A stretch of DNA of 64,000 nt from Escherichia coli (GTDB lineage: Bacteria > Pseudomonadota > Gammaproteobacteria > Enterobacterales > Enterobacteriaceae). Made by a program: the position numbers and the translations under genes. The stretch's first letter is position 1, and every line of letters starts with the position of its first letter. This document shows, piece after piece, positions 1,423 to 44,200 of the stretch. The DNA is taken from NCBI RefSeq assembly GCF_013122565.1, contig NZ_CP053258.1; one strand, given 5' to 3'. The notes under the pieces are model-generated. The model saw nothing but the letters and a program-made list of their open reading frames with translations, made no database searches and was not told the origin of the DNA.

Positions 1423-1806
1423 GTGTTACAACTTCTTTTAGCAGTTTTTATTGGCGGTGGTACGGGAAGCGTGGCGAGATGGCTGTTAAGTATGCGATTT
1501 AACCCGCTGCATCAGGCGATTCCGTTGGGGACGCTGGCTGCAAACCTGATTGGGGCATTCATCATAGGAATGGGATTCGCCTGGTTCAGCAGGATGACAA
1601 ACATTGATCCCGTGTGGAAAGTATTAATCACCACCGGATTTTGTGGCGGTCTAACAACCTTCTCAACATTTTCGGCAGAAGTGGTGTTTTTGTTACAAGA
1701 GGGTCGCTTTGGCTGGGCATTACTGAACGTTTTCGTCAACCTTCTGGGGTCTTTTGCCATGACCGCACTGGCATTCTGGCTGTTTTCGGCCTCAACCGCA
1801 CACTAA
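1423..1806 (+). CDS. crcB: fluoride ion channel CrcB/FluC (127 aa)
   Basis: Track ORF 127 aa, hydrophobic four-helix pattern with GGxTTFSTF motif; start codon appears to be GTG. Confidence 0.92.
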
Positions 1807-1809
1807 AGA

Positions 1810-1845
1810 CCAAAAAAAACCCGCTGATTAAGCGGGTTTTGAATT
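1810..1845. terminator. bidirectional intrinsic terminator between convergent crcB and cspE
   Basis: aaaaaaaacccgct-gatta-agcgggtttt hairpin with flanking A and T runs. Confidence 0.7.
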
Positions 1846-1859
1846 CTTGCTGACGTATC

Positions 1860-2069
1860 TTACAGAGCGATTACGTTTGCAGCAGAAGGGCCTTTGGCAC
1901 CGTTAGTGATTTCGAACTCTACACGCTGACCTTCAGCAAGAGTTTTAAAACCATTAGTCTGGATTGCAGAGAAGTGTACGAACACGTCTTTGCTGCCGTC
2001 TTCCGGAGTAATGAAACCGAATCCTTTGGACTCATTAAACCACTTAACGTTACCTTTAATCTTAGACAT
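1860..2069 (-). CDS. cspE: cold-shock-domain protein CspE (69 aa)
   Basis: Internal start of track ORF 1860..2153; [37 protein letters not shown] contains the RNP1/RNP2 cold-shock motifs. Confidence 0.95.
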
Positions 2070-2243
2070 CAAAATTACCTTTACATGAAAAATAGACACA
2101 AATGCTGTGTCGGTTACCAGTACACCAATTGTGGTACGCTTTGTCCAGTGCAACTTTACTAAAAAGTGATAAAAGTCGCGTTATTTTTGATGTTAATTAT
2201 TTTACTCATTGATTTTAAAGAGTTTACTAAAATTTCATTTGTC

Positions 2244-2804
2244 TCAAAACTGAAAGCGCATCCAGGCAAAGTACACATTGCCATTGTTGTAGGTACCCGG
2301 AATGTAGGTCATCTGAAAAGTCACTGGACCATAACCCACGGAGGCCAATGGCAGTAGAACCGGGAGAGGGATGTAATTCCAGTTATCGCGCGCCGTTACG
2401 CCGGCGGTGAATCCCAGACCTAAATGAAAATTTTCATCCGCCAGCGGTCGCCAGGTACTTTCCCATCCGTATCCGGCAATCGGTTCCCATTTGTTCCACG
2501 AGTCCTTAAATGCCATGGCATACAGGCCATGCCAGTTTCCTTTTTCATCCCAACGCGACTGACCAAAACCGCCACCCCACGGTCGCTCGTTATAGCGATC
2601 GGTTTTTTCTTTGTCGTAAGCGAAACGTGCATGCCAGGTGATGGCAGGAATATATAAATCATAATGTTCAGGCTGTTGCCAGGTTTGTGCAATATTTTCT
2701 CTAAACGTTGTCATCCACTCATCTGCGTTAGCAAAAACTTTACCAACGCTGATTAACTGAATAAAAACAAAGGAAAATATAGCGACATATTTACTCACGT
2801 TCAT
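2244..2804 (-). CDS. pagP: lipid A palmitoyltransferase PagP (186 aa)
   Basis: Internal ATG of track ORF 2244..2828 ([25 protein letters not shown] signal peptide); outer-membrane beta-barrel pattern; plus-strand cat at 2802-2804 confirms the ATG. Confidence 0.92.
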
Positions 2805-3284
2805 TTGTGACCATAAAACATTTATCAAAAATCTACTACTAGCATAGCAAAGCTACAATTAACATAACCTTAATAGCTCCAACATAAAGAATAATCTGAA
2901 TAGCTGCTCTATTTATTTCCGCTTGTTTAAGTTAAATATTTCCGCGCATCGATTTAAAATGATACATCGTTTTCTGCGATGGGAATAGTCATAAAAGAAA
3001 AAGCAAGTTATTACTGATAACAAAATGCAATCAAGAAAAAAATGACTTATTTTTTAATAAGATACAAAAAATTATCTTAACAAAGAATATATTATATATC
3101 GTCAACCCACGCCCATTATAGATTATTTTTTGAGCACACAACCGCAGCTAACACCATTGCAATTAACAAATTTGCATCAATCTACCATCAATTTACACAC
3201 ATTATTATGTGATAATTGCCAACTGTTAAATATGCGTTTTGTTATCTATGTATAAAAACAGCAACTTCAATGTCTTAATGGCAG

Positions 3285-3310
3285 TTTTTCTTGATTTTAA
3301 TCAGCATTCA
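3285..3310 (+). promoter_or_regulatory. FNR-like site candidate upstream of dcuC
   Basis: ttgattttaatcag resembles TTGAT-N4-ATCAA with one mismatch, about 90-100 bp upstream of the dcuC ATG. Confidence 0.3.
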
Positions 3311-3393
3311 CCGCCAATTTATTGGGCATATTTTTTCCTTAAGTTTTAGGAATTTTTTATTATTTACTTTGGGGCCTGGAGACAGGAAAAATT

Positions 3394-4779
3394 ATGCTGA
3401 CATTCATTGAACTCCTTATTGGGGTTGTGGTTATTGTGGGTGTAGCTCGCTACATCATTAAAGGGTATTCCGCCACTGGTGTGTTATTTGTCGGTGGCCT
3501 GTTATTGCTGATTATCAGTGCCATTATGGGGCACAAAGTGTTACCGTCCAGCCAGGCTTCAACAGGCTACAGCGCCACGGATATCGTTGAATACGTTAAA
3601 ATATTGCTAATGAGCCGCGGCGGCGACCTCGGCATGATGATTATGATGCTGTGTGGCTTTGCCGCTTACATGACCCATATCGGCGCGAATGATATGGTGG
3701 TCAAGCTGGCGTCAAAACCATTGCAGTATATTAACTCCCCTTACCTGCTGATGATTGCCGCCTATTTTGTTGCCTGTCTGATGTCTTTGGCCGTCTCTTC
3801 CGCAACCGGTCTGGGCGTTTTGCTGATGGCTACTCTGTTTCCGGTGATGGTAAACGTTGGTATCAGTCGTGGCGCAGCAGCTGCCATTTGTGCCTCCCCG
3901 GCGGCGATTATTCTCGCACCGACTTCAGGGGATGTGGTGCTGGCGGCACAGGCTTCCGAAATGTCGCTGATTGACTTCGCCTTCAAAACGACGCTGCCTA
4001 TCTCAATTGCTGCAATTATCGGCATGGCGATCGCCCACTTCTTCTGGCAACGTTATCTGGATAAAAAAGAGCACATTTCTCATGAAATGTTAGATGTCAG
4101 TGAAATCACCACCACTGCTCCTGCGTTTTATGCCATTTTGCCGTTCACGCCGATCATCGGTGTACTGATTTTTGACGGTAAATGGGGTCCGCAATTACAC
4201 ATCATCACTATTCTGGTGATTTGTATGCTGATTGCCTCCATTCTGGAGTTTCTCCGCAGCTTTAATACCCAGAAAGTTTTCTCTGGTCTGGAAGTGGCTT
4301 ATCGCGGGATGGCAGATGCGTTTGCTAACGTGGTGATGCTGCTGGTTGCCGCTGGGGTATTCGCTCAGGGGCTTAGCACCATCGGCTTTATTCAAAGTCT
4401 GATTTCTATCGCTACCTCGTTTGGTTCGGCGAGTATCATCCTGATGCTGGTATTGGTGATTCTGACAATGCTGGCGGCAGTCACGACCGGTTCAGGCAAT
4501 GCGCCGTTTTATGCGTTTGTTGAGATGATCCCGAAACTGGCGCACTCTTCCGGCATTAACCCGGCGTATTTGACTATCCCGATGCTGCAGGCGTCAAACC
4601 TGGGCCGTACCCTTTCGCCCGTTTCTGGCGTAGTCGTTGCGGTTGCCGGGATGGCGAAAATCTCACCATTTGAAGTCGTAAAACGCACCTCGGTGCCGGT
4701 GCTTGTTGGGCTGGTGATTGTTATCGTTGCTACAGAGCTGATGGTGCCAGGAACGGCAGCAGCGGTCACAGGCAAGTAA
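3394..4779 (+). CDS. dcuC: anaerobic C4-dicarboxylate transporter DcuC (461 aa)
   Basis: Track ORF 461 aa, polytopic membrane protein; ATG at 3394 preceded by a ggagacagg SD-like sequence. Confidence 0.95.
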   Translation: MLTFIELLIGVVVIVGVARYIIKGYSATGVLFVGGLLLLIISAIMGHKVLPSSQASTGYSATDIVEYVKILLMSRGGDLGMMIMMLCGFAAYMTHIGANDMVVKLASKPLQYINSPYLLMIAAYFVACLMSLAVSSATGLGVLLMATLFPVMVNVGISRGAAAAICASPAAIILAPTSGDVVLAAQASEMSLIDFAFKTTLPISIAAIIGMAIAHFFWQRYLDKKEHISHEMLDVSEITTTAPAFYAILPFTPIIGVLIFDGKWGPQLHIITILVICMLIASILEFLRSFNTQKVFSGLEVAYRGMADAFANVVMLLVAAGVFAQGLSTIGFIQSLISIATSFGSASIILMLVLVILTMLAAVTTGSGNAPFYAFVEMIPKLAHSSGINPAYLTIPMLQASNLGRTLSPVSGVVVAVAGMAKISPFEVVKRTSVPVLVGLVIVIVATELMVPGTAAAVTGK

Positions 4780-5500: not shown

Positions 5501-7127
5501 TAGGTTTCACTTTCGGAATATAGATTGAAAATAAGGTACCGCAGGGATCATTATCTTCGAGAGTGATAACACCACCGCAGCGCGTTACGTAGCTGGCAAT
5601 CAAGTACAACCCAATGCCATGTTCACCGGGCTCGTCAGCACGCGTACTGACCCCCTGCTCAAATATTTTGTCTCGTAGAGACTCTGGAACGCCGCAGCCC
5701 TGATCGGCGACTTCAATCACCACATCATCGCCTTCATCGCTGAGGAATAATTCAACGATCTTGTTTCCTTCATCGCTACGCAGGCTGGCTTCGAAGGCGT
5801 TATCAAGTAAATTGCCCACAATGGCGGCAAACTCGGTGCTATCCAGTCCTGGCGGCAGTTGCGAAAGCTGGCTACCGGGGACGATGATCATTTTTAGCCC
5901 CAGTTCCCGGGCGCGCTGCACTTTACCAAAAAGCAGCCCCGCCACCTGGCGATCGGCAAACGCCTCGCGCAGGCTGTCAATAAGCTGTTGCTGTGCCTGA
6001 GACTCCCCCTGCACCATCGCCAGCACGCGATCATACTCTTTCATCTGCAACAGACCATTGAGCGTCGACATCCAATTGAGATGCTCGTGTCGCAATGTAC
6101 GAAGGCTCTCGACGTATTGTTTTATTTGCGTCAGTTGCGCATTGAGGGTGGAAATTTCGTCTTTACTACGAAAGCTGATAATGGCCCCCAGCAAATCATC
6201 ACCTGAACGAATAGCTTCCCGATTGGCAATAACGCTCAGACCGTTAAAGTTAGCCACCACATCCTGACGTTTTTCATCAATCTGTTCGGTAAAGAAATCG
6301 GCGGGCCTGACCACTTCAGCAATGGGTTTACCCAACCATTGCCGTCCGGGGGAACTCAGCCCCAGCATCTTTCTTGCGTTACGATTGATGGCGGTAATGT
6401 AACCGTGCGGATCCACCGCAATCAGCCCTTCATAAACCGAACTAAATAGCGCCTCTTGCTGACGGACCACGCGTGCGATTTGCTTTGGCTCCATGCCCAT
6501 CATCTGCCGACGGATATGCGCGGCCAGGAACCACGACAGCAACATCAGAATCCCTAACAGCACGACAAACACACCTGCCATTGGTAATAAAAACTCAGCC
6601 CGCCAGCTATCGATTTTACTCACCAGGTAGCCAATCGACACCACGCCGATGACTTTTCCATCGTCATCAAAAATTGGCGTTTTGGCGCGCATCGCCATGC
6701 CCATTGACCCTTTCCCGGTAATGAAGTAGCTCTCCCCTTTCTCCAGCGCGCCCTGTTTGGTGAACTGCATAGGATGACCAATTTTCTCCGGATTAGGATG
6801 GTAAAGGCGGATCGAGTGCCGGTCGCCAATCACCACATAATCAAAATCGGTATCTCTTTGTAATTTGTTAGCGATGGTCGCCAGCCGTTTGTAGTCACGC
6901 GTTTTTACTGCGCTGATGATACTGTCATTAGAAGCAATAATTTTCGCCTGATTCATTGCCATGTCGCGTACATGAAGCGTTAAATAGTCCTCAAAACTGG
7001 CCGTAAAATATTGCGCCAGGGCTGCAATGACAAATATTGAGAACACCAGAATCAGCAAAAAGATACGCAGCGGAAATGCCAGTCTTTGGAAAAATGCAAA
7101 CTGTTTATTCTCGTTAAGCTGCAACAT
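5469..7127 (-). CDS. dpiB: sensor histidine kinase DpiB/CitA (552 aa)
   Basis: Track ORF 5469..7187 trimmed to internal Met (MLQLNENKQFAFFQRLAF...) to give 552 aa; periplasmic sensor plus HATPase_c motifs. Confidence 0.9.
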   Translation of the reverse strand: MLQLNENKQFAFFQRLAFPLRIFLLILVFSIFVIAALAQYFTASFEDYLTLHVRDMAMNQAKIIASNDSIISAVKTRDYKRLATIANKLQRDTDFDYVVIGDRHSIRLYHPNPEKIGHPMQFTKQGALEKGESYFITGKGSMGMAMRAKTPIFDDDGKVIGVVSIGYLVSKIDSWRAEFLLPMAGVFVVLLGILMLLSWFLAAHIRRQMMGMEPKQIARVVRQQEALFSSVYEGLIAVDPHGYITAINRNARKMLGLSSPGRQWLGKPIAEVVRPADFFTEQIDEKRQDVVANFNGLSVIANREAIRSGDDLLGAIISFRSKDEISTLNAQLTQIKQYVESLRTLRHEHLNWMSTLNGLLQMKEYDRVLAMVQGESQAQQQLIDSLREAFADRQVAGLLFGKVQRARELGLKMIIVPGSQLSQLPPGLDSTEFAAIVGNLLDNAFEASLRSDEGNKIVELFLSDEGDDVVIEVADQGCGVPESLRDKIFEQGVSTRADEPGEHGIGLYLIASYVTRCGGVITLEDNDPCGTLFSIYIPKVKPNDSSINPIDR

Positions 7128-7507
7128 TGTTTTCCTTGCGGGTTGTCCCGAACCTCTTTGACGGATGTAATTAAAATGTTGAATCAAAATACATAGATAT
7201 TAATTATGATCGTGGCAAATTTTATTCATTAAATCAATTAAATCACTTAAACCTGCGGGTCATTTCGCAATTACATTAATTAAAAAACTTAAAACCATTA
7301 AATAAATAAAAAACCACTAACTCTATGTGAAATAAATCAAAATTTCACGCCGAAATACTCCTTAGGATGTATAGCGAAAGGAGAAAAAGATATACCTCGA
7401 TCGCCCTCCCTTTCTCCCAAGTGAAAATAAAAGGTTATCAGTTTGCAACATTGAACAACATTCGTTGCAAATCGATAACAATATGCACCTTCAGGATACT
7501 ATTTATT

Positions 7508-8566
7508 ATGTTCGGCAATGATATTTTCACCCGCGTAAAACGTTCAGAAAATAAAAAAATGGCGGAAATCGCCCAATTCCTGCATGAAAATGATTTGAGC
7601 GTTGACACCACAGTCGAAGTATTTATTACCGTAACCCGCGATGAAAAGCTTATCGCGTGCGGTGGAATTGCCGGAAATATTATTAAATGCGTTGCTATCA
7701 GTGAATCCGTTCGCGGTGAAGGACTGGCGCTAACATTAGCCACTGAATTGATAAACCTCGCCTATGAGCGGCACAGCACGCATCTGTTTATTTATACCAA
7801 AACCGAATACGAGGCGCTGTTCCGCCAGTGCGGTTTTTCCACGCTGACCAGCGTACCTGGCGTGATGGTGCTGATGGAAAACAGCGCCACGCGACTGAAA
7901 CGCTATGCCGAATCGCTGAAAAAATTTCGTCATCCAGGGAACAAGATTGGCTGCATTGTGATGAACGCCAATCCCTTTACGAATGGTCACCGTTATCTGA
8001 TTCAACAGGCTGCGGCACAGTGCGACTGGTTGCATCTGTTTTTAGTCAAAGAAGATTCTTCACGCTTCCCCTATGAAGACCGGCTGGATCTGGTGTTAAA
8101 AGGCACCGCCGATATTCCACGTCTGACTGTGCATCGCGGCTCCGAATACATCATCTCCCGCGCTACGTTCCCTTGCTACTTCATTAAAGAACAGAGCGTC
8201 ATTAACCATTGTTACACCGAAATTGATCTGAAGATTTTCCGTCAGTACCTCGCTCCCGCGCTGGGTGTAACTCACCGCTTTGTCGGTACTGAACCCTTTT
8301 GTCGCGTTACCGCCCAGTACAACCAGGATATGCGCTACTGGCTGGAAACGCCGACTATCTCCGCACCGCCCATCGAACTGGTTGAAATTGAGCGGCTGCG
8401 TTACCAGGAGATGCCGATATCCGCTTCCCGGGTACGTCAACTGCTGGCGAAAAACGATCTCACGGCTATCGCGCCGCTGGTCCCTGCAGTCACGCTGCAT
8501 TATTTGCAGAACCTGCTTGAGCACTCCCGCCAGGACGCGGCAGCTCGTCAAAAGACCCCCGCATGA
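7508..8566 (+). CDS. citC: [citrate (pro-3S)-lyase] ligase CitC (352 aa)
   Basis: Internal ATG (MFGNDIFTRVKRSENKKMAEI...) of track ORF 7367..8566; heads the citCDEFXG operon. Confidence 0.9.
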   Translation: MFGNDIFTRVKRSENKKMAEIAQFLHENDLSVDTTVEVFITVTRDEKLIACGGIAGNIIKCVAISESVRGEGLALTLATELINLAYERHSTHLFIYTKTEYEALFRQCGFSTLTSVPGVMVLMENSATRLKRYAESLKKFRHPGNKIGCIVMNANPFTNGHRYLIQQAAAQCDWLHLFLVKEDSSRFPYEDRLDLVLKGTADIPRLTVHRGSEYIISRATFPCYFIKEQSVINHCYTEIDLKIFRQYLAPALGVTHRFVGTEPFCRVTAQYNQDMRYWLETPTISAPPIELVEIERLRYQEMPISASRVRQLLAKNDLTAIAPLVPAVTLHYLQNLLEHSRQDAAARQKTPA

Positions 8567-19781: not shown

Positions 19782-20345
19782 TTAGATTTTACCAACCAGG
19801 TCCAGAGACGGAGCCAGAGTTGCTTCACCTTCTTTCCATTTAGCCGGGCAAACTTCACCTGGGTGAGAAGCAACGTACTGGGCTGCTTTGATTTTGCGCA
19901 GCAGGTCAGACGCGTCACGGCCAATGCCTTCAGCGGTAACTTCGATAGCCTGGATGATACCCTGCGGGTCAACTACGAAGGTCGCACGGTCAGCCAGACC
20001 TTCTTCTTCACGCATGTTTTCGAAGTTACGGGTCAGGGCGCCAGTCGGGTCGCCGATCATCGCATATTTGATTTTAGCGATGGTTTCAGAGCTGCTGTGC
20101 CATGCTTTGTGGGTGAAGTGAGTATCAGTAGATACTGCGTATACGTCTACGCCCAGTTTCTGCAGTTCTTCGTAGTGGTCAGCAACGTCACCCAGTTCGG
20201 TCGGGCATACGAAAGTAAAGTCAGCCGGGTAGAAGAAGAAGACGCTCCAGCGGCCTTCGGTATCTTTTTCGGTGATTTCGATGAATTCGCCGTTTTTGAA
20301 TGCCTGGTTTTTAAAAGGTTTGATTTTGGTGTTAATCAAGGACAT
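19782..20345 (-). CDS. ahpC: alkyl hydroperoxide reductase subunit C, peroxiredoxin (187 aa)
   Basis: Track ORF 187 aa with FTFVCPTEL peroxidatic cysteine motif. Confidence 0.95.
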
Positions 20346-20349
20346 CTAT

Positions 20350-20470
20350 ACTTCCTCCGTGTTTTCGATGGGATGTAAGGTAACGAATTTTTTTCGATTC
20401 CGCTAATGTGTTTCCATTATCGAATCGATAAGTTTTACCTTACAACCTTCGTAAGACAACTTTGTGAACT
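20350..20470. promoter_or_regulatory. ahpC promoter region (OxyR-regulated by knowledge of the family; exact site not resolved)
   Basis: Location inferred from gene context; A/T-rich region with repeated cgat/atcg elements; no confident motif match by eye. Confidence 0.3.
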
Positions 20471-20718
20471 TTGCACCGCCGGCGGCGATAAAAAGTAAAA
20501 TGGGCCCCCTTTCCAGGTGACCGTGTAATCTGAACTACCCTTTGGTATCTTCAGCGCCTGTTCAGCAGGCTGCGTTGTTGCCCTTACAAATGCAACAACG
20601 ATAAGGATTACAACACCCTCATAAACAAAGGGCAATCACCTGATCTAAGCTCTTACCTATGACAGTGATAGGTTATGCCTTTTGCCCCATTTTTGCACTG
20701 ACTGAAAAGGATAAATAA

Positions 20719-21465
20719 ATGCTAAAAAAGTCACTTTTAATGACAATGCTACCTGCCATTGCCTTCGCAGAGGAACTTCCTGCTCCAGTAAAAGCGATTG
20801 AAAAACAGGGCATTACAATCATCAAAACGTTCGATGCCCCCGGAGGAATGAAAGGTTATCTCGGAAAGTATCAGGATATGGGCGTCACCATCTACCTGAC
20901 TCCAGATGGTAAGCACGCTATCTCTGGTTACATGTACAACGAGAAAGGTGAAAACCTGAGTAACACACTTATCGAAAAAGAAATTTACGCACCAGCCGGA
21001 CGCGAAATGTGGCAACGGATGGAACAATCCCACTGGCTCCTCGACGGTAAAAAAGACGCGCCGGTCATTGTCTACGTCTTCGCCGATCCGTTCTGCCCAT
21101 ATTGTAAACAGTTCTGGCAGCAGGCGCGCCCGTGGGTAGATTCTGGCAAAGTGCAGTTGAGAACATTGTTGGTTGGGGTTATCAAACCAGAAAGTCCGGC
21201 GACAGCCGCGGCAATTCTTGCCTCCAAAGATCCCGCAAAAACCTGGCAAGAATATGAAGCCTCTGGTGGCAAGCTTAAGCTAAACGTGCCTGCAAACGTA
21301 AGTACAGAGCAAATGAAAGTGTTAAGCGATAACGAGCAACTCATGGACGATCTGGGGGCAAATGTCACACCCGCTATCTATTACATGAGTAAGGAAAATA
21401 CGTTGCAACAAGCCGTGGGGTTGCCCGATCAGAAAACGCTTAATATCATTATGGGAAATAAATAA
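20719..21465 (+). CDS. dsbG: periplasmic disulfide isomerase DsbG (248 aa)
   Basis: Track ORF 248 aa with signal peptide and CPYC thioredoxin-fold active site. Confidence 0.92.
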
Positions 21466-21477
21466 AAGATAATTCAT

Positions 21478-21513
21478 GGATGGTTGAAATATACCCCTGC
21501 TTTTCAACCATCC
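21478..21513 (+). terminator. hairpin after dsbG (terminator candidate, weak U-tract)
   Basis: ggatggttgaaa-tatacccctgc-tttcaaccatcc 12-bp inverted repeat 13 nt after the dsbG stop. Confidence 0.45.
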
Positions 21514-21672
21514 TTAAAACGCATGAATTGCTCGCTCTGTGCCAGATGGCTGTGCTATTTTAGAAAAACTTAATCCTGAGTTAAGCAAAAAAACATAATC
21601 AATAAAAATATATACGCAAAAACATTGATTAAGTGAATACTTCATGGAAGAAAAATATAACCGGAGTACTGT

Positions 21673-22575
21673 ATGGCCAATCTCTACGACCTGAAAAAGT
21701 TCGACTTAAATCTTCTTGTCATCTTTGAGTGCATTTATAAACACTTAAGCATAAGCAAGGCTGCTGAGTCATTATATATCACTCCATCAGCAGTGAGTCA
21801 GTCGTTACAACGCTTACGTGCGCAATTTAATGACCCTTTATTCATTCGCTCAGGAAAAGGTATCACGCCAACTACGACAGGGTTAAATTTACACAATCAC
21901 CTTGAGAAAAACCTCAGAGGTCTTGAGCAAACAATCAATCTTGTTAATAAATCGGAAGTAAAGAAAAATTTTATTATCTACGGTCCTCAGCTCATCTCCT
22001 GTTCTCATAACCGCATGCTGATCCGCTGCCTACGGCAAGATACCTCGGTCGAGATTGAGTGCCATGACACACTTATTTCAGCCGAGAATGCTGAAGAACT
22101 GTTGGTTCATCGCAAAGCCGATCTGGTGATCACTCAAATGCCAGTGATCAGTCGTTCCGTCATTTGTATGCCATTGCATACGATTCGTAATACCCTAATT
22201 TGTAGTAATAAACATCCCCGGATTACAGATACCAGTACTTACGAACAAATTATGGAAGAAGAGTTCACCCAATTAATTTCCAAATCATCGGGGCTTGATG
22301 ACATTCAAATGGAAATAGACGAGAGGTTTATAAATCGTAAAATTGCCTTTCGTGGCTCCTCTTTATTGGCGATCATAAATAGCATTGCGATTACAGATTT
22401 GCTAGGAATAGTTCCCTTTGAACTTTATGAATCCCACCAAGAATCTCTTAATTTAAAGGAAATAAAACTAGAGCACCCCCTACCCTTGGTTAAGCTTTAC
22501 ATTTGTTACAACAAGACTTCTCTAAACAACCTGGCATTCTCACGATTCATTGACAGATTGAATGATAATTCTTGA
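21673..22575 (+). CDS. ybdO: LysR-family transcriptional regulator (300 aa)
   Basis: Track ORF 300 aa with N-terminal LysR HTH (LSISKAAESLYITPSAVSQSLQRLR); strongly AT-rich coding sequence. Confidence 0.88.
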   Translation: MANLYDLKKFDLNLLVIFECIYKHLSISKAAESLYITPSAVSQSLQRLRAQFNDPLFIRSGKGITPTTTGLNLHNHLEKNLRGLEQTINLVNKSEVKKNFIIYGPQLISCSHNRMLIRCLRQDTSVEIECHDTLISAENAEELLVHRKADLVITQMPVISRSVICMPLHTIRNTLICSNKHPRITDTSTYEQIMEEEFTQLISKSSGLDDIQMEIDERFINRKIAFRGSSLLAIINSIAITDLLGIVPFELYESHQESLNLKEIKLEHPLPLVKLYICYNKTSLNNLAFSRFIDRLNDNS

Positions 22576-22720
22576 TATATAGATTCAGAGAGAGGCTACA
22601 TCCTTTCATTTCTATTCATTTCATCAATAAAAAATAAAATACTCTACCTTACAGGACTTACTTTATAATTAACGACCTTATCTCACTGATCACCCTGTAA
22701 CGTTCAGAGAGCGTATTTAG

Positions 22721-23941
22721 ATGTCTATTTATAAAATTCCTCTTCCACTCAATATTCTGGAAGCTGCACGAGAGCGTATTACCTGGACACTCAATACCCT
22801 ACCCCGCGTTTGTGTCTCATTTTCTGGCGGCAAAGACTCTGGTTTAATGCTGCATCTGACAGCCGACCTTGCCCGACAAATGGGCAAAAAAATCTGCGTT
22901 TTGTTTATCGACTGGGAAGCGCAGTTCTCATGCACTATCAACTATGTTCAGTCACTACGCGAGTTTTACGCCGATGTCATCGAAGAGTTTTACTGGGTTG
23001 CGCTCCCGCTTACGACGCAAAATTCCCTTTCACAATACCAACCCGAATGGCAGTGCTGGGAACCTGATGTCGAATGGGTGCGTCAGCCCCCGCAAGATGC
23101 GATAACCGATCCTGACTTTTTCTCCTTTTACCAGCCAGGCATGACCTTCGAACAATTTGTACGTGAGTTTGCCGAATGGTTTTCACAAAAACGTCCGGCG
23201 GCGATGATGATCGGCATCCGTGCGGATGAGTCCTACAATCGTTTTGTCGCCATCGCCAGTTTAAATAAACAACGTTTTGCCGACGATAAACCCTGGACTA
23301 CGGCCGCGCCAGGCGGTCATAGCTGGTACATATACCCCATCTACGACTGGAAAGTCGCCGATATCTGGACCTGGTATGCTAAAAACCAAAGCCTCTGTAA
23401 CCCACTGTATAATCTGATGTATCAGGCAGGTGTCCCTCTGCGTCATATGCGAATTTGCGAACCTTTTGGCCCGGAGCAACGGCAAGGATTATGGCTCTAT
23501 CACGTCATCGAACCGGATCGCTGGGCGGCCATGTGCGCACGAGTCAGCGGAGTAAAAAGTGGCGGCATTTACGCCGGACATGACAACCATTTTTATGGTC
23601 ATCGTAAAATCCTCAAGCCGGAACATTTAGACTGGCAGGAGTATGCATTATTGCTACTCAGCAGCATGCCGGTGAAAACAGCTGAACATTACCGTAATAA
23701 AATCGCCATTTATTTGCACTGGTATCAGAAAAAAGGCATCGAGGTTCCACAAACCCAACAAGGGGACATTGGCGCGAAAGATATCCCCTCCTGGCGGCGA
23801 ATATGCAAAGTTTTACTCAACAACGATTACTGGTGCCGGGCATTATCATTTAGCCCCACAAAAGCGAAGAATTATCAGCGTTATAACGAACGGATAAAAG
23901 GAAAACGTCAGGAATGGGGGATACTATGCAACAACGATTAA
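22721..23941 (+). CDS. ybdN: PAPS-reductase-like PP-loop ATP pyrophosphatase domain protein (IbrA-like, 406 aa)
   Basis: Track ORF 406 aa; PP-loop motif SFSGGKDS at residues 33-40 (about nt 22817-22840). Confidence 0.88.
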   Translation: MSIYKIPLPLNILEAARERITWTLNTLPRVCVSFSGGKDSGLMLHLTADLARQMGKKICVLFIDWEAQFSCTINYVQSLREFYADVIEEFYWVALPLTTQNSLSQYQPEWQCWEPDVEWVRQPPQDAITDPDFFSFYQPGMTFEQFVREFAEWFSQKRPAAMMIGIRADESYNRFVAIASLNKQRFADDKPWTTAAPGGHSWYIYPIYDWKVADIWTWYAKNQSLCNPLYNLMYQAGVPLRHMRICEPFGPEQRQGLWLYHVIEPDRWAAMCARVSGVKSGGIYAGHDNHFYGHRKILKPEHLDWQEYALLLLSSMPVKTAEHYRNKIAIYLHWYQKKGIEVPQTQQGDIGAKDIPSWRRICKVLLNNDYWCRALSFSPTKAKNYQRYNERIKGKRQEWGILCNND

Positions 23942-24543
23942 CGCAGGATTTAACGCAATTTCTCGCCAGCTTGCCGGAAGACGATCGCATCAAAGCGATT
24001 AATGAAATCCGCATGGCGATCCATCAGGTAAGTCCTTTTCGGGAAGAGCCGGTGGATTGTGTTTTGTGGGTCAAAAATGATCAGCTTGTGCCAAATGATT
24101 ACAACCCAAACAACGTGGCACCGCCCGAGAAAAAATTGCTGAAAAAATCCATTGAAACTGATGGTTTTACCCAACCCATTGTGGTGACCAACACGACAGC
24201 CAATTCACTTGAAATCGTTGATGGTTTTCACCGCCATGAAATCGGTAAAGGATCATCATCATTAAAACTACGCTTAAAAGGTTATTTACCGGTGACCTGC
24301 CTGGAGGGGACGCGTAATCAGCGCATCGCCGCGACTATTCGTCATAATCGCGCTCGTGGACGCCATCAAATCACCGCCATGTCGGAAATCGTCCGTGAAC
24401 TTAGCCTGTTGGGATGGGACGATAATAAAATTGGCAAAGAGCTGGGAATGGACAGCGACGAAGTGCTGCGCCTGAAGCAAATTAACGGCCTGCAAGAGTT
24501 GTTTGCCGACCGTCAATATTCCCGCGCCTGGACTGTCAAATAA
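23914..24543 (+). CDS. ybdM: ParB/Srx-like nuclease domain protein (IbrB-like, 209 aa)
   Basis: Track ORF 209 aa; DGFHRHE motif at residues 103-109 (about nt 24220-24240); 28-nt overlap with ybdN. Confidence 0.88.
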   Translation: MGDTMQQRLTQDLTQFLASLPEDDRIKAINEIRMAIHQVSPFREEPVDCVLWVKNDQLVPNDYNPNNVAPPEKKLLKKSIETDGFTQPIVVTNTTANSLEIVDGFHRHEIGKGSSSLKLRLKGYLPVTCLEGTRNQRIAATIRHNRARGRHQITAMSEIVRELSLLGWDDNKIGKELGMDSDEVLRLKQINGLQELFADRQYSRAWTVK

Positions 24544-25704
24544 CTACAGCTGGCGCAGGCGTTCAGCTGCTGCCAGCAACGTCGATTCCTTCTTGGCAAA
24601 ACAGAGACGAATCAGTTTATGTGGGAAGGGATCGGCGCAAAACACCGATAGCGGAATCGCCGCTACGCCGTGCTCCTGCGTCAGCCACTGGCAAAACTCA
24701 ACATCATCCAGGGTAGATACGGCGCTGTAATCCACCAGCAAAAAGTATGTGCCTTCGCACGGTAAAATCTCCAGCCGACTTTCATTTAAGGCGTTAACCA
24801 GAATATCGCGCTTCTGGCGATAAAAGTCCGGTAACGCAAGATAATGCTCAGGTTCTGCACGTAGCATATCGGCAAGCGCCAGCTGTGCCGGGGTATTTAC
24901 CGAAAAGGTCAGATACTGATGTACCTTGCGAATTTCGGCACTGATGGGCGCTGGCGCAACGCAATAACCCACTTTCCAGCCGGTCATATGATAGGTCTTG
25001 CCAAACGATGACACCGCCACCGCCCGCTCACGCAACTGCGGATGCGCCAGCACACTGGCATGGCCCTGTTGTGAAAAGTTGATGTGCTCGTAGACTTCAT
25101 CGCTAATGACAAAAATCTCGTGCCCGGCGATCGCCTGCCACAAAGCGGCGAAATCAGCCTGCTGCCAGACAGTTGCACTGGGGTTATGCGGAGTGTTGAG
25201 GATCACCAGTCGGGTGCGCTCGCTTAACAATGCGGCAAATTCCTGCCAGTCAACGCGAAAATGCGGTGGTTGCAGTGCCATACGCTTCACTATTCCCCCA
25301 GAAAGCGCGATGGCGGGGGCGTAACTGTCATAGCTGGGATCAAAACAAATCACTTCATCGCCATTGCGCACCAATGCGGTAATCGCCGCGTATAACGCCT
25401 CCGTCGCCCCTGCCGTTACGGTGATATCGCTGTCGGCATCCGGTTGATAGCCATACAGACGTTCCGTTTTCTGAGCAATCGCCTCGCGCAAGGCCTGCAC
25501 GCCGCTCATGGGCGCGTATTGGTTTGCCCCCTGGGCAACGTGGTACGCCAGTCGCTCTTGTAAATAGCGCGGACCATCAAAATCAGGAAAGCCTTGCGAA
25601 AGGTTAATCGCCTGGTGTTGCTGCGCCAGCGCGCTCATCTGGGTGAAAATAGTGGTGCCAAGTTGTGGAAGTTTGCTTTGTGGAATCAGAGGGTTATTTG
25701 TCAT
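24544..25704 (-). CDS. ybdL: PLP-dependent methionine aminotransferase (386 aa)
   Basis: Track ORF 386 aa, class I/II aminotransferase pattern (SFGKTY lysine region); stop abuts the ybdM stop. Confidence 0.9.
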   Translation of the reverse strand: MTNNPLIPQSKLPQLGTTIFTQMSALAQQHQAINLSQGFPDFDGPRYLQERLAYHVAQGANQYAPMSGVQALREAIAQKTERLYGYQPDADSDITVTAGATEALYAAITALVRNGDEVICFDPSYDSYAPAIALSGGIVKRMALQPPHFRVDWQEFAALLSERTRLVILNTPHNPSATVWQQADFAALWQAIAGHEIFVISDEVYEHINFSQQGHASVLAHPQLRERAVAVSSFGKTYHMTGWKVGYCVAPAPISAEIRKVHQYLTFSVNTPAQLALADMLRAEPEHYLALPDFYRQKRDILVNALNESRLEILPCEGTYFLLVDYSAVSTLDDVEFCQWLTQEHGVAAIPLSVFCADPFPHKLIRLCFAKKESTLLAAAERLRQL

Positions 25705-39899: not shown

Positions 39900-41029
39900 A
39901 CTAAGTGGTCTGCCATCATGGCATCCTGTTTTCTGGATGCCATCGCATGGCGCAACAGCACACCACCACAAGCCACCATCCCGCCGATCAACGCGGAAAG
40001 GATCACAATAATCGCCTTACCCGGACCGTCTTTTTTCACTGGCAATGACGGGCTTAACTGATATTTAAACGGCGTAAAATTCACATCGTTGACATTTGCT
40101 TTTGTTAATTGCTCGACAAGATACTGACGATTACGTAATTCACCATTCAGTTCCGCAACGTCAGTAACCGCTTTTTCAATTTCCAGTTTGCGTTCAATAC
40201 CGTCTGCGCCGAGAGAAATAGAGAAATCGGGGTCATCTTTAACGGCCTGACCATTACTGTATACGGGCTTTTTAATTCCTGCCGCGTTGGCAATGTCGAG
40301 TGAATAATTGAGGCGCTGAATGTTTGCATCAAGTTGATTTTTCGTTTTAATGCGATCCTGAGCCAGTTTTTCTTTTTCAAACTGGGTTTTGATCTCCAGC
40401 TTATTACGGACGTTTTCTAGCGACTCTTTCACCACCAACGCAGAGATATAATCGATATACCCGCTCAAAACGGTCTGCGCCTCTTCACTGGTTGGCGCGG
40501 TAAAACTTAGCGTCCAGGAGGTATACAGTGACGGTTCATCTTTTTTCTTACTGGCATTGTCATCAACCGCTTTCATTTTTTCGCTCAATGCGACAATTGC
40601 GCGATGCAAATCCAGTTCGTCGATTTTCGCCTCTTTTAATTGGTCCATCACATAAGGTGATGAACGCAGGTACTCTTCCAGCAAGCTAATTGACTGAAAT
40701 TTCTTGATAAACAGATTAAATACACCGCCACGGTCGATATTAACATCGAGATCAAGAACGCGGAGTTTGGTAAAGGTTTTCTCCAGGTCCTGCCACTGAA
40801 TGGCTTCGGCGGGAGTAATGACGGCTGAGCTGGTCCATTTTTGCGGCAGGATGAAAGAGATCAGCAAGCCTGCGCAGGCAAATGCAAAAACGACTGCCAT
40901 GACCGTTTTTTTGGCCCGCCATAAAACTTCGATTAGATTAAGTAAATCAATTTCATTATTACTGGGCGATGCCAGAGGATACTCAGGAAAATGAGCGTCA
41001 CTTCCCTGTTTAATATTCAGTGATGACAT
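39896..41029 (-). CDS. fepE: polysaccharide co-polymerase (Wzz-like) FepE (377 aa)
   Basis: Internal Met (MSSLNIKQGSDAHFPEYPLASP) of track ORF 39896..41080; two TM helices flanking a coiled-coil periplasmic domain. Confidence 0.9.
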   Translation of the reverse strand: MSSLNIKQGSDAHFPEYPLASPSNNEIDLLNLIEVLWRAKKTVMAVVFAFACAGLLISFILPQKWTSSAVITPAEAIQWQDLEKTFTKLRVLDLDVNIDRGGVFNLFIKKFQSISLLEEYLRSSPYVMDQLKEAKIDELDLHRAIVALSEKMKAVDDNASKKKDEPSLYTSWTLSFTAPTSEEAQTVLSGYIDYISALVVKESLENVRNKLEIKTQFEKEKLAQDRIKTKNQLDANIQRLNYSLDIANAAGIKKPVYSNGQAVKDDPDFSISLGADGIERKLEIEKAVTDVAELNGELRNRQYLVEQLTKANVNDVNFTPFKYQLSPSLPVKKDGPGKAIIVILSALIGGMVACGGVLLRHAMASRKQDAMMADHLV

Positions 41030-41194
41030 GGGTATAACCTGAAAATGAGTCCAATAGGGGAAAATCTCCACGGCGCTCACTTTACCAGTTGGTGAGAATT
41101 ATCCGAAGCTGAAGTTTGTAAATTCCTTCCACTGAATGAAACATTCACTCTATTTAAGAGAAATGACCAACAAACATATAAATTAAATAAATGA

Positions 41195-41229
41195 TTAACC
41201 CATAATTATTTCCTGTAATTATGGGTTAA
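41195..41229. repeat. perfect 14-bp-arm inverted repeat 15 nt downstream of the entF stop
   Basis: ttaacccataatta-tttcctg-taattatgggttaa; followed on the minus strand by an AT-rich tract. Confidence 0.6.
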
Positions 41230-41243
41230 TAGATAATATTAAT

Positions 41244-44200
41244 TTACCTGTTTAGCGTTTCGCGAATAATCGGCCCAATTTTTTCAAACGCCCCTGGAGA
41301 GATAATATCCACATGCGCACAATCCTGACGATAGATATCCAGCCCGGCTATCCACGGCGACCAGGCGCGTTCGGGGCTCATACCTTCCTGAAGCGTACGT
41401 TCAGCAACAAACAGCGTCGCTCTACCATCAAACGGTACGCTATGAGCAGTCGTCAGCAGGCGCACAGCATCAGCGTAGTTGCCTTCAATGGTGGTAAACA
41501 ACTCCGTTGAAGTACTTCCCTGCTGTGCCGCCAGGAAGGCCTCGCGTTCGCGGTTAATCTCCGCCAGCACTTCCGGGTCCAGGCCATTAGCCTCTTTTTC
41601 CTGCCAGTTTTGCGTTTCTGGCGGCCAGGTATCCAGCAAGCCAAGAAATGCCACCTGTTCGCCACGGGCACGCAGTCGCGCCGCAATACCCTGCGCCAGC
41701 GTACCGCCCAGCGAATAACCCAGCAGGTAATAAGGGCCGTGCGGTTGTTGCTCAAGTAACGTTGCCAGATGCGCTTCGCAGACTTCATCCAGATTTGCCG
41801 CGGTCTGCATGGGGCCATTGGGGCGCGGCGACTGAATGCCGATAATCGACCATTGTGGATCGAGATAACGCGAGAGCACGCTGAACTGCCAGGCAAAACC
41901 GGACGCAGGATGGAAACAAAACAGCGTCGGGCCATTACCTTCACGCAACGGCAGAATGGTTTCGAATCCCATGCGCCGGGAGCTGTCCTCTTCACCATCA
42001 ATAATCGTTGCCAGTTTGGCGACGGTTGATGCGACCATCACCTGCCCCGGCGTCACCTGACGGGCAAACTGCCGACTTAACTGCGCTGCCAGTTTCATTG
42101 CCAGTAGCGAATGACCGCCTAGCGCGAAGAAATCAGCATCGGCATCCTGCACGTCACAACCCAGCAACGACGCGAATGCCGCGGCGATAATCGTTTCACT
42201 GCCCGCTTTCGGCGCACGCCCCGGCGCTTGTGCTTTCAGTTCAGGCAACGGTAAGGCTTTGCGATCCAGCTTGCCGTTGGCGCTAAGAGGTAACTGTGGA
42301 AGTTGCAGCAGAACCACGGGCACCATATGTGGTGGCAATGTTTCGCGAAGCTGCGCCTGTAATGCGCTGGTATCCAACGGCAGGCCCGATTGCGACACCA
42401 GATAGCCCACCAACTGACGCGCATCACCACCGGTGGCTGCCGCCTGGTTAATCACACAGGCGTGGGTAACGGCTTGTTCGACACCCGGCAGCGCCTGCAT
42501 CACGCGATCGATTTCGCCCAGTTCGATACGCTGCCCGCGAATTTTTAGCTGATCGTCACTGCGCCCGAGGTATTCCACCGCGCCGTTATCGAGCCAGCGG
42601 GCAACGTCTCCGGTACGGTACATCCGTTCACCTGGGGCAAAAGGATCGGCAATAAAGCGGCTGGCGGTCAGATCGGGTCGTCCAAGATACCCCTGCGCCA
42701 GTTGAATGCCGGTGAGATAGAGATCACCCGCCACACCCGGCGGCACCGGATGCATCATCGCATCGAGAATGCGCAGGCCCGTATTCCACACCGGATAACC
42801 AATCGGCACACTGCTGCCGCGTACCTGTGCCAGTTCCTCGCCAAAGGCCGGATACCAGCTCACATCTACCGCTGCTTCCGTCGGGCCATACAGATTATGC
42901 AACGGCGCGCCGGTTAACTGTTGCCATTCGCGGCATAAATCAGCCGGTAAGGCTTCACCACTACAGAAAACCTGTTTCAACGTCGCGCAACTCTGGCGAG
43001 CGGTTTGCGGCGTCAGCGATGCAACAAATGCCGCCAGCATCGACGGCACAAAGTGCGTGGTCGTTACGCCATATTCGGCAAAGAATTGCTGCATAGCGAG
43101 CGGGTCGCGGTGCGCTTCCGGTTCAGCCATCACCAGTTTCGCCCCGGCAATAAACGGCCAGAAAAACTCCCACACCGAGACATCAAAACTGCACGGCGTT
43201 TTTTGGGCAACGACATCTTCGCCTGTAAGCGGATAATGATTTTGCATCCACAACAGGCGGTTGACGATAGCCGTCTGCCCGACCATTACCCCTTTCGGCC
43301 TGCCGGTGGAGCCAGAGGTAAAGATGATATAAGCCGTGTGATGCGGTTGTGAAAGTTGCAGCGGCGCACTGCCCTGCGGTGTAAGCGGGGCGTTATAGCA
43401 AAGGCTGGTTAAATCTGGAACATCAACAAAGCGCGGCAGTTGATCGTCGGTGGTGATTAACAGCGACGGACGCGCATCTTCCAGCATCATTTTCAGGCGA
43501 TCGTCCGGATAGCCGGTATCCAGCGGTAGCCAGGCCGCACCAGCTTCAACAATCGCATGTAGCGCCAGGGTCAAAAAGACCGAGCGCGGTAATGCCACCG
43601 CCACGCTGTCCCCTGGTTTAACGCCGTGCTCACGCAGCAGATTCGCCAGCGCCACCACCTGCTCGCGCATTTCCCGATAGCTGAACTGGTAACGCGCATC
43701 TGCCAGCGCCGGAGCATCCGGTGTTTTTGCCGCTTGTTCTGCCACCAGCGCGCTAAGCGTGGTTTCTGGAATCTCAACCTGAGTGGCGTTGATCTGCGCC
43801 AGCTGCGCGTATTCACCTGGCAGCATAATATCGACATCGCCGCACAACAGCGCCGGATCCGCGGCGAATTGGGCGATCAGCATTTTCAGGCGTTCAGCAT
43901 GCTGGATTAACGTTGGCTCAGCGTAACGCTGTTTATTGGCGAGGATTTCAATACTCAAATCACCGTGTTCATCCGGGAACAGGGCCAGTTCAAGGTCATT
44001 AACCGGACCGGTTGCCAGGGTATGGGTTTGCGCCTGAACATCAGGAATATCCAGTTGGTAATCAAAGACCTTGATATTGAGTACCGGACCAAACAGGGGT
44101 TCATCACCTGCCGCTCGCCCGCTGTCACGGACAATTTGTTCGGCATCGTAACGTTGATGGCGACGCATTTTTTTCAGTTGAGCCGCCAGTCGGGTTGCCA

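Follow-up and report, generated by a model that had tools for sequence, protein, structure and literature searches.

Does the AT-rich DNA around ybdO, the gene that current RefSeq annotation names citR, record the arrival of foreign DNA between core genes, or is it a lasting property of a native regulator gene? We addressed this question in a 64-kb stretch of an Escherichia coli genome (the window), in which the gene order is pagP, dcuC, dpiAB, citC-T, rna, rnk, ybdR, uspG, ahpFC, dsbG, ybdO, ybdN, ybdM, ybdL, hcxA, cstA, and then the ent/fep cluster. A first-pass annotation made from the sequence alone had proposed that ybdO-ybdN-ybdM is a horizontally acquired accessory island inserted between core genes, a preferred H-NS target, and probably silent in standard conditions. 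Its gene boundaries are right (dsbG 20719-21465, ybdO 21673-22575, ybdN from 22721). Our data point with good confidence to a different origin, namely, that ybdO is an ancient, vertically inherited, H-NS-silenced gene of the Enterobacteriaceae, and that its AT-richness is a maintained state rather than the fading trace of an import.

The features relevant to this question are listed below. Coordinates of the two H-NS regulatory elements and of the transcription start were transferred from those published for other strains (PMC4720273).

20719-21465, + strand: dsbG, the upstream neighbour (GC 0.470, already declining in the final ~150 bp).
21423-21497, + strand: counterpart of the upstream H-NS regulatory element (URE; published at -250 to -176 relative to the ybdO ATG), GC 0.333.
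21440-22759, no strand: AT-rich block, also a sequence-divergence hot spot (GC 0.368), from the change-point fit, the GC profile, and sliding identity to three E. coli references.
21466-21672: dsbG-ybdO spacer, GC 0.329.
21473-21518, + strand: inverted repeat just 3' of the dsbG stop codon, with 17-nt arms that are 88% complementary.
21550-21567, + strand: ybdO promoter core, CTGTGCTATTTTAG at 21550-21563, with an extended -10 element (TGcTATTTT) at 21553-21561.
~21566-21567, + strand: expected ybdO transcription start.
21673-22575, + strand: ybdO/citR, encoding a LysR-type regulator of 300 aa (GC 0.394; Pfam HTH_1 and LysR_substrate; NCBIfam CitR equivalog).
21699-21836, + strand: equivalent of the downstream H-NS regulatory element (DRE; +27 to +164), within the coding region, GC 0.399.
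22576-22720, + strand: ybdO-ybdN spacer (GC 0.324), the most divergent stretch (56-78% identity to the K-12 and B2 alleles).
22721-23941, + strand: ybdN, with PAPS-reductase and DUF3440 domains (GC 0.480), not in the compositional block.
23914-24543, + strand: ybdM, ParB_N-like (GC 0.476), overlapping ybdN by 28 bp.
24544-25704, - strand: ybdL, the downstream core neighbour, GC 0.543.

The compositional part of the first-pass claim stands. GC content is 0.376 in 21470-22720 versus 0.519 for the whole window, and only 0.56% of the windows of equal size (1251 bp) within the 64 kb are as low or lower. The 500-bp GC profile lies at 0.35-0.42 between 21250 and 22999, and a three-segment likelihood change-point fit over 20000-25000 placed the block at 21440-22759 (log-likelihood gain of 26.9), the GC content being 0.368 within it, against 0.466 on its left and 0.492 on its right. 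This fitted block nearly coincides with the 21470-22720 first proposed. The block consists of ybdO/citR and its two flanking spacers. Both ybdN and ybdM fall outside it, with a GC content no lower than that of dsbG (each of the three is ~1.3 sd below the window gene mean), which removes the compositional basis for a three-gene island.

Within the block, the densities of W6 tracts and TpA steps are 83 and 79 per kb, compared with 22 and 43 per kb across the window; the AT-rich composition, A/T tracts, and TpA steps expected of an H-NS-silenced locus are thus present. The two strings singled out earlier were found as well (aaaaataaaatactctacc at 22630-22648 and tttataatt at 22663-22671). The published H-NS high-affinity motif TCGATAAATT has just four matches with two mismatches in the block (3.0 per kb versus 0.9 per kb in the window), a weak signal to which we gave no weight. 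Comparably AT-rich stretches occur elsewhere in the window, at 1708-4176, 6438-8255, and 39990-41344; AT-rich blocks are therefore uncommon here, yet that of ybdO is not unique.

At the level of the gene, ybdO has the lowest GC content among the 45 window genes (z = -3.4). All three codon positions are low (GC1/GC2/GC3 of 0.442/0.326/0.415; z = -2.4 for GC3), and in the protein the amino acids with AT-rich codons (FYMINK) account for 32% versus 21%, and GARP for 15% versus 29%. Synonymous codon usage, measured by Karlin's B statistic against the pooled window genes with a resampling null, deviates for ybdO (z = 7.4) and is also atypical for ybdN (z = 6.3). The sole window gene with a stronger departure than ybdO is ahpC, for which the codon bias of a highly expressed gene is the probable cause.

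By its domains (HTH_1, 68 bits; LysR_substrate, 48 bits) and its score against the NCBIfam CitR equivalog NF047710 (456 bits versus a cut-off of 400), YbdO is assigned as a LysR-type regulator and CitR equivalog. The next NCBIfam models are YbeF (156 bits) and LeuO (103 bits), which place YbdO in the same LysR subgroup as LeuO, albeit far under the LeuO cut-off of 262 bits. LeuO is a core-genome regulator kept silent by H-NS. The likeness extends to ybdO, likewise an AT-rich, H-NS-silenced LysR-type regulator gene of the core genome.

We then consider whether the locus is accessory. Of the 5426 complete E. coli genomes, 5422 match the interval 20300-25000 (5328 of them along 80% or more of the query) and 5357 match the ybdO block itself, so the term "accessory" does not fit. 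In ET120, which is without the locus, an IS5-family element lies 80 bp into ybdO and is followed directly by entF; this absence is a secondary, IS5-linked deletion reaching entF. The window holds no tRNA gene, no integrase or IS ORFs lie between dsbG and ybdL, and the only direct repeats are short, at chance level, and absent from the borders.

Beyond E. coli, a scan of one genome per species, which selected loci by their YbdO peptides and reports presence rather than showing gene absence or dating an ancient acquisition, returned 75 YbdO loci in at least 16 genera of Enterobacteriaceae (Escherichia, Citrobacter, Salmonella, Enterobacter, Lelliottia, Leclercia, Pseudocitrobacter, Kluyvera, Klebsiella, Trabulsiella, Yokenella, Superficieibacter, Pluralibacter, Pseudenterobacter, Silvania, and Huaxiibacter). 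Every locus with sufficient flank has the order ahpF-ahpC-[dsbG]-ybdO-[ybdN-ybdM]-ybdL. The constant member of this syntenic locus is ybdO, as dsbG is absent in Enterobacter and its relatives and ybdNM in Leclercia, Silvania, and Klebsiella indica. The first-pass annotation had named universal conservation in related genera as an observation that would speak against it, and this is what we found. The same order in 75 species, together with the lack of mobility features, is incompatible with a recent insertion between core genes. Of the proposed horizontal acquisition, the AT-rich composition holds, whereas the marks of foreign DNA (patchy distribution, phylogenetic conflict, and mobility genes) were not found at the ybdO locus. 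Classical genomic islands, which are tRNA linked, integrase bearing, and strain variable, share with ybdO the atypical GC content and codon usage; the ybdO locus differs from them in its near-universal presence in E. coli and its synteny across the family, with none of the mobility features. An acquisition long ago, before the Enterobacteriaceae radiated, is compatible with these data.

The AT-richness is as constant as the gene order. Every one of the 71 species tested has a ybdO richer in AT than the core genes on either side, by a mean of 12.9 points, and the offset affects GC3 (-16.2), GC1 (-13.8), and GC2 (-8.6). Since the GC content of ybdO rises with that of the host (slope 1.4, r 0.68), the offset is kept as genomes shift. 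The 200 bp upstream of ybdO average 32% GC across species, and the deficit of ybdNM relative to the flanking core genes is only 4.6 points. Over an evolutionary depth of this order, a transient mark of foreign origin would be expected to fade, and we infer that the constant offset is an equilibrium, upheld either by selection that favours silencing or by a mutational regime local to the block. The shared synteny and the equal AT shift of ybdO in at least 16 genera thus show that a native regulator gene can be AT-rich as a stable, and probably functional, condition.

The block is also a hot spot of divergence from other E. coli strains. While flanking genes are 97-99% identical to those of K-12-like and B2 (EcN) genomes, ybdO is 85.3% identical to the K-12-like and 77.5% to the B2 (EcN) allele, and the corresponding values for the two spacers are 92/79% and 86/75%. 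The trough in sliding identity spans ~21400 to ~22750, matching the AT-rich block, and is deepest (0.56-0.67) at the 3' end of ybdO. Across the 5426 complete genomes, the block falls into three discrete allele classes with no intermediates. The class to which the window belongs is rare (11 genomes, ~99.8% identical to the window allele); the K-12 type (~86% identical) occurs in roughly 3557 genomes and the B2 type (~76-77.6%) in roughly 1776.

Synonymous differences per site in ybdO (Nei-Gojobori) are 0.49 between the window and K-12, 0.74 between the window and B2, and 0.73 between K-12 and B2, compared with 0.02-0.32 in ahpC, dsbG, ybdN, ybdM, and ybdL. Values between E. coli and Citrobacter or Salmonella are 0.75-0.91, so that the two comparisons with B2 are as saturated as those between genera. 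The protein, on the other hand, is under purifying selection, as dN/dS is 0.02-0.07, not above that of the flanks; the ORF is intact in the three aligned E. coli allele classes. Non-synonymous distances of ybdO are hierarchical along the species tree, dN being 0.05-0.09 among E. coli alleles and growing to 0.16-0.17 against Escherichia sp. E1V33, 0.31-0.37 against Citrobacter, 0.43-0.45 against Salmonella, and ~0.46-0.48 against Klebsiella, and they are 3-6 times those of ybdN. These distances fit vertical descent at a high, gene-specific rate. After normalising by the E. coli-Citrobacter dN of each gene, the within-species depth of ybdO is ~2 times that of its neighbours, which makes some allelic import or old polymorphism plausible. 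The three allele classes and the divergence hot spot extend the report of Higashi et al. (PMC4720273), in which ybdO ranked in the top 50 for substitution rate.

The alternative that survives best takes up this excess: ybdO would be an old gene whose allele classes, the rare one of the window above all, arrived by homologous recombination with diverged Escherichia lineages, or else represent a long-lived polymorphism. We regard this as possible but less likely than not. The absence of intermediates between classes speaks for it, as does the jump in synonymous differences from 0.02-0.25 in the flanks to 0.49-0.74 in ybdO, with K-12 and B2 as saturated as E. coli and Salmonella. The edges of the divergence trough are fairly sharp near 21400 and 22750, and the window allele sits within flanks that are 98-99% identical to K-12. 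Moreover, MB53 shares the window allele at 99.9%, despite differing from the window by 2-5% in its more distant flanks, and the allele is a mosaic, the 5' half of which is closer to the K-12 type and the 3' end of which is equidistant from both types. Against this, in protein and genome searches, no other Escherichia species yielded a donor allele that resembles the window allele more closely than the K-12 type does, the non-synonymous distances follow the species tree, and, the normalised depth being only about twice that of the neighbours, most of the excess is explained by the high gene-specific rate. Horizontal transfer in this form would be an exchange of alleles rather than the insertion of an island, and it is compatible with ancient vertical inheritance of the gene.

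A second alternative, which we consider improbable, holds that a poorly expressed gene under weak selection has come to low GC content through AT-biased mutation, as a neutral by-product, and that H-NS binds without a selected role. AT-biased mutation is general in bacteria, and a local bias of this kind, if neutral, would leave the same AT pattern as selection. In favour of this idea, ybdO evolves fast at all site classes, and its expression is reported to be low (PMC4720273). Other poorly expressed genes in the window, however, are less AT-rich, and the offset, which reaches codon positions one and two, holds steadily in all 71 species. Furthermore, the dN/dS values indicate effective selection on ybdO, the promoter core is conserved, and regulated relief of silencing with phenotypes has been published (PMC9141747, PMC9068703).

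The idea of a recent accessory island, with AT-richness as the unameliorated signature of a foreign donor, can draw on the atypical GC content and codon usage of ybdO, the codon usage of ybdN, the published label of ybdO as horizontally transferred, and the genera without ybdNM, but it is scarcely credible given a locus present in 98.7-99.9% of complete E. coli genomes whose single examined absence is an IS5-linked deletion, the GC match of ybdN and ybdM to dsbG, and the missing tRNA, integrase, IS, and border repeat, and it is rejected because of the syntenic gene order in at least 16 genera, dN along the species tree, and an AT offset too constant for a transient signature. The label comes from Higashi et al., who classed ybdO as a horizontally transferred gene and found its ortholog absent from 3 of 44 strains (PMC4720273), an absence that was presumably the basis of the classification. 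Family-wide synteny calls this label into question.

H-NS silencing of ybdO is already known. Conserved H-NS ChAP-seq peaks cover ybdO in K-12, SE11, and SE15; lac reporter fusions with the alleles of these three strains showed a more active promoter in hns mutants; both the URE and the DRE were required for repression; and the start site was mapped at -107/-106 in all three strains (Higashi et al. 2016, PMC4720273). In E. coli K1, H-NS shifted the ybdO promoter in EMSA, deletion of hns raised ybdO 2.2-2.4-fold by qRT-PCR, and acid pH lifted repression only when hns was present (Fan et al. 2022, PMC9141747). The first-pass claim of an H-NS target is therefore borne out by publication for K-12, SE11, SE15 (PMC4720273), and K1 (PMC9141747), and is extended by analogy to the window allele.

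With the loci of these four strains, the window shares the gene, its neighbours, the AT-rich promoter and 5' coding region, the conserved -10 block, the expected start site, and the substitution hot spot; it differs by belonging to the third allele class. Over the block, it differs by 14% and 23% from the H-NS-tested K-12 and B2 alleles. The promoter core CTGTGCTATTTTAG, which has no good -35 element, is retained across Escherichia, Citrobacter, and Salmonella. The rare window allele is likely to be silenced by H-NS in the same way as the tested alleles, and its URE and DRE equivalents may work as H-NS elements. Higashi et al. explicitly compared the URE and DRE, which flank the promoter, to those of bgl and proU (PMC4720273). 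This likeness is a functional analogy with no shared sequence family, and synergy, bridging, and spreading are putative for the window allele.

Under our preferred reading of an ancient, H-NS-silenced native gene, H-NS would nucleate on the AT-rich URE equivalent (21423-21497) and on the DRE equivalent (21699-21836, within the initial ~160 bp of ybdO coding sequence) and would bridge or spread over the promoter (-10 at 21553-21561, start at ~21566), holding transcription at a basal level. Early stationary phase and acid pH would ease repression. The little CitR made would keep the ybdNM operon repressed and influence the citrate lyase genes. The block itself evolves several-fold faster than its neighbours at synonymous and non-synonymous sites with the protein under purifying selection, and this fast evolution would have produced three deep E. 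coli allele classes, of which the window carries the rare one. For the composition, extent, conservation, synteny, divergence, purifying selection, and promoter-core conservation, this model draws on the present analysis; for H-NS binding, derepression, the start site, and CitR targets, it draws on papers on other strains.

How silent the gene is has a two-part answer. The prediction of silence in standard conditions agrees with a promoter at basal level under H-NS. However, Rodionova et al. 2022, who renamed YbdO as CitR, reported that deletion of citR in K-12 changed 86 genes and raised ybdN by log2 5.5 (~45-fold) and ybdM by log2 2.5, showing that CitR represses the adjacent ybdNM (PMC9068703). 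Given the size of the ybdN derepression and the number of genes changed, enough CitR is made to act. Antagonism of H-NS by CitR found no support in our analysis or in the H-NS and CitR papers on ybdO.

Taken alone, ybdO is a textbook-style H-NS target whose experimental dissection is already in the literature. What we add is modest: the constant family-wide AT offset, the synteny, the three allele classes with saturated synonymous divergence, and the rarity of the window allele. The locus nonetheless cautions against taking low GC content plus H-NS binding as horizontal acquisition, as the first-pass annotation did and as the literature has in part. With three deep alleles, saturated synonymous sites, and strong purifying selection, it also offers a compact test case of whether H-NS-covered DNA undergoes faster mutation, undergoes more recombination, or retains old polymorphism. 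More speculatively, the block might be both a family-wide, selectively maintained H-NS silencer and a long-lived allelic hot spot, the alleles of which are kept or reshuffled by recombination or balancing selection and set different regulatory thresholds; we think this rather unlikely. If it were true, a low GC content would not reliably mark an H-NS target as foreign, and some of the H-NS targets labelled "horizontally transferred" would in fact be native.

Several other signals in the block were assessed. A sigma-70 consensus scan of 21300-22900 gave 3 promoter-like sites versus 4.9 expected from shuffles; it missed the mapped promoter, for want of a good -35 element, and is thus uninformative. 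As candidate CitR boxes, an exact 11-mer present in both spacers (ATCAATAAAAA) and a dyad at 21593-21634 were set aside, since the B2 allele and the other species share neither; we put both down to chance in a stretch of AT-rich DNA. The FNR-like sites between ybdO and ybdN amounted to matches with three mismatches and were also discarded. Rfam gave no match in the block, the one hit being a sub-threshold STnc70 match in the ahpC-dsbG spacer. The inverted repeat at 21473-21518 is kept in the E. coli alleles and is probably the dsbG terminator hairpin. The ybdO-ybdN spacer, which presumably holds the ybdN promoter, has a weak terminator-like hairpin at 22590-22607. An IS1 element was seen inside ybdO in some strains.

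For the neighbouring ybdNM, a defence system was considered and rejected, as PADLOC returned weak partial matches only (YbdN to DndC and BrxP, and YbdM to a methyltransferase). With respect to an IbrA-like and IbrB-like pair, YbdN has the expected domains, scoring 56.5 bits for PAPS_reduct and 110.6 bits for DUF3440. YbdM scores 25.4 bits for ParB_N, slightly below the 26.3 cut-off, and is named "IbrB-like domain-containing protein" in RefSeq.

Our data show that the ybdO (citR) region of the window (positions 21466-22720) represents a third, rare allele class, alongside the K-12 and B2 types of E. coli. In a set of 5426 complete E. coli genomes, this allele was present at an identity of at least 99.7% in just 11, MB53, UTME-7, 6EVA, and PT62 among them, and beyond those 11 genomes the best match to the region is 86.3%. 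The sequences flanking the allele are 98-99% identical to those of K-12.

Two repeats were found in the ybdO spacers. The 11-mer ATCAATAAAAA occurs in exact form in both of them (21598-21608 and 22623-22633), and a dyad (an 11-nt inverted repeat, 21593-21634) is located between the ybdO start site and the ATG. Conservation of the 11-mer and the dyad was not found in the B2 allele or in other species; therefore, we set aside their reading as a box for CitR, the ybdO product, and consider that both probably arose by chance in AT-rich DNA.

Downstream of ybdO lies the following gene pair:

22721-24543, ybdN (PAPS-reductase and DUF3440 domains) and ybdM (ParB_N-like)

The two genes overlap by 28 bp. 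The ParB_N score of ybdM (25.4 bits) falls just under the cut-off of 26.3, and PADLOC returned only weak partial matches for the pair (DndC, BrxP, and a methyltransferase). In Leclercia, Silvania, and Klebsiella indica, this site has kept ybdO but lacks the ybdNM pair. In addition, we observed a patch within ybdM (24000-24250) that is specific to the window and MB53. Its identity to both K-12-like sequences and E. coli Nissle (EcN) is 81-86%, whereas these share 96-100% identity with each other across the patch, which, judged from sequence identity, looks like a separate recombination tract.

Each of the three E. coli references shares 85-94% identity with the ahpC-dsbG spacer (20300-20750). 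MB53 is one of these, although from 20750 onward it matches the window near-perfectly. On the minus strand of this spacer (20490-20585), a sub-threshold Rfam match to the STnc70 sRNA was identified (33.4 bits versus a gathering score of 40).

MB53 is the window's closest relative apart from its citC gene, which is interrupted by an ISEcp1/ISKpn26/blaCTX-M-32 module (L001 2611-8309), i.e., a chromosomal ESBL insertion ~12 kb upstream of ybdO. In E. coli ET120 (L081 10372-11957), ybdO is cut off after ~108 bp by an IS5-family (ISKpn26-like) element, right after which the sequence picks up at entF; this deletion of ~19 kb removed ybdNM, ybdL, cstA, and most ent/fep genes. Nissle, a B2 strain, has no ybdR between yldA and uspG (L003 16984-17626), and its uspG is 92.8% identical to that of the window, compared with 98.8-99.8% in the other references.

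Two short contigs (L004 and L005), labeled as Lachnospiraceae and Bacteroides MAGs, host an E. coli-type ybdO (89% protein identity) and are almost certainly mis-binned Escherichia DNA.

The window contains three more AT-rich stretches, which are possible additional targets of H-NS:

1708-4176, pagP-dcuC spacer, with the GC minimum of the window (0.367, at 2119-3369)
6438-8255, dpiB-citC divergent spacer
39990-41344, fepE (gene GC 0.447)
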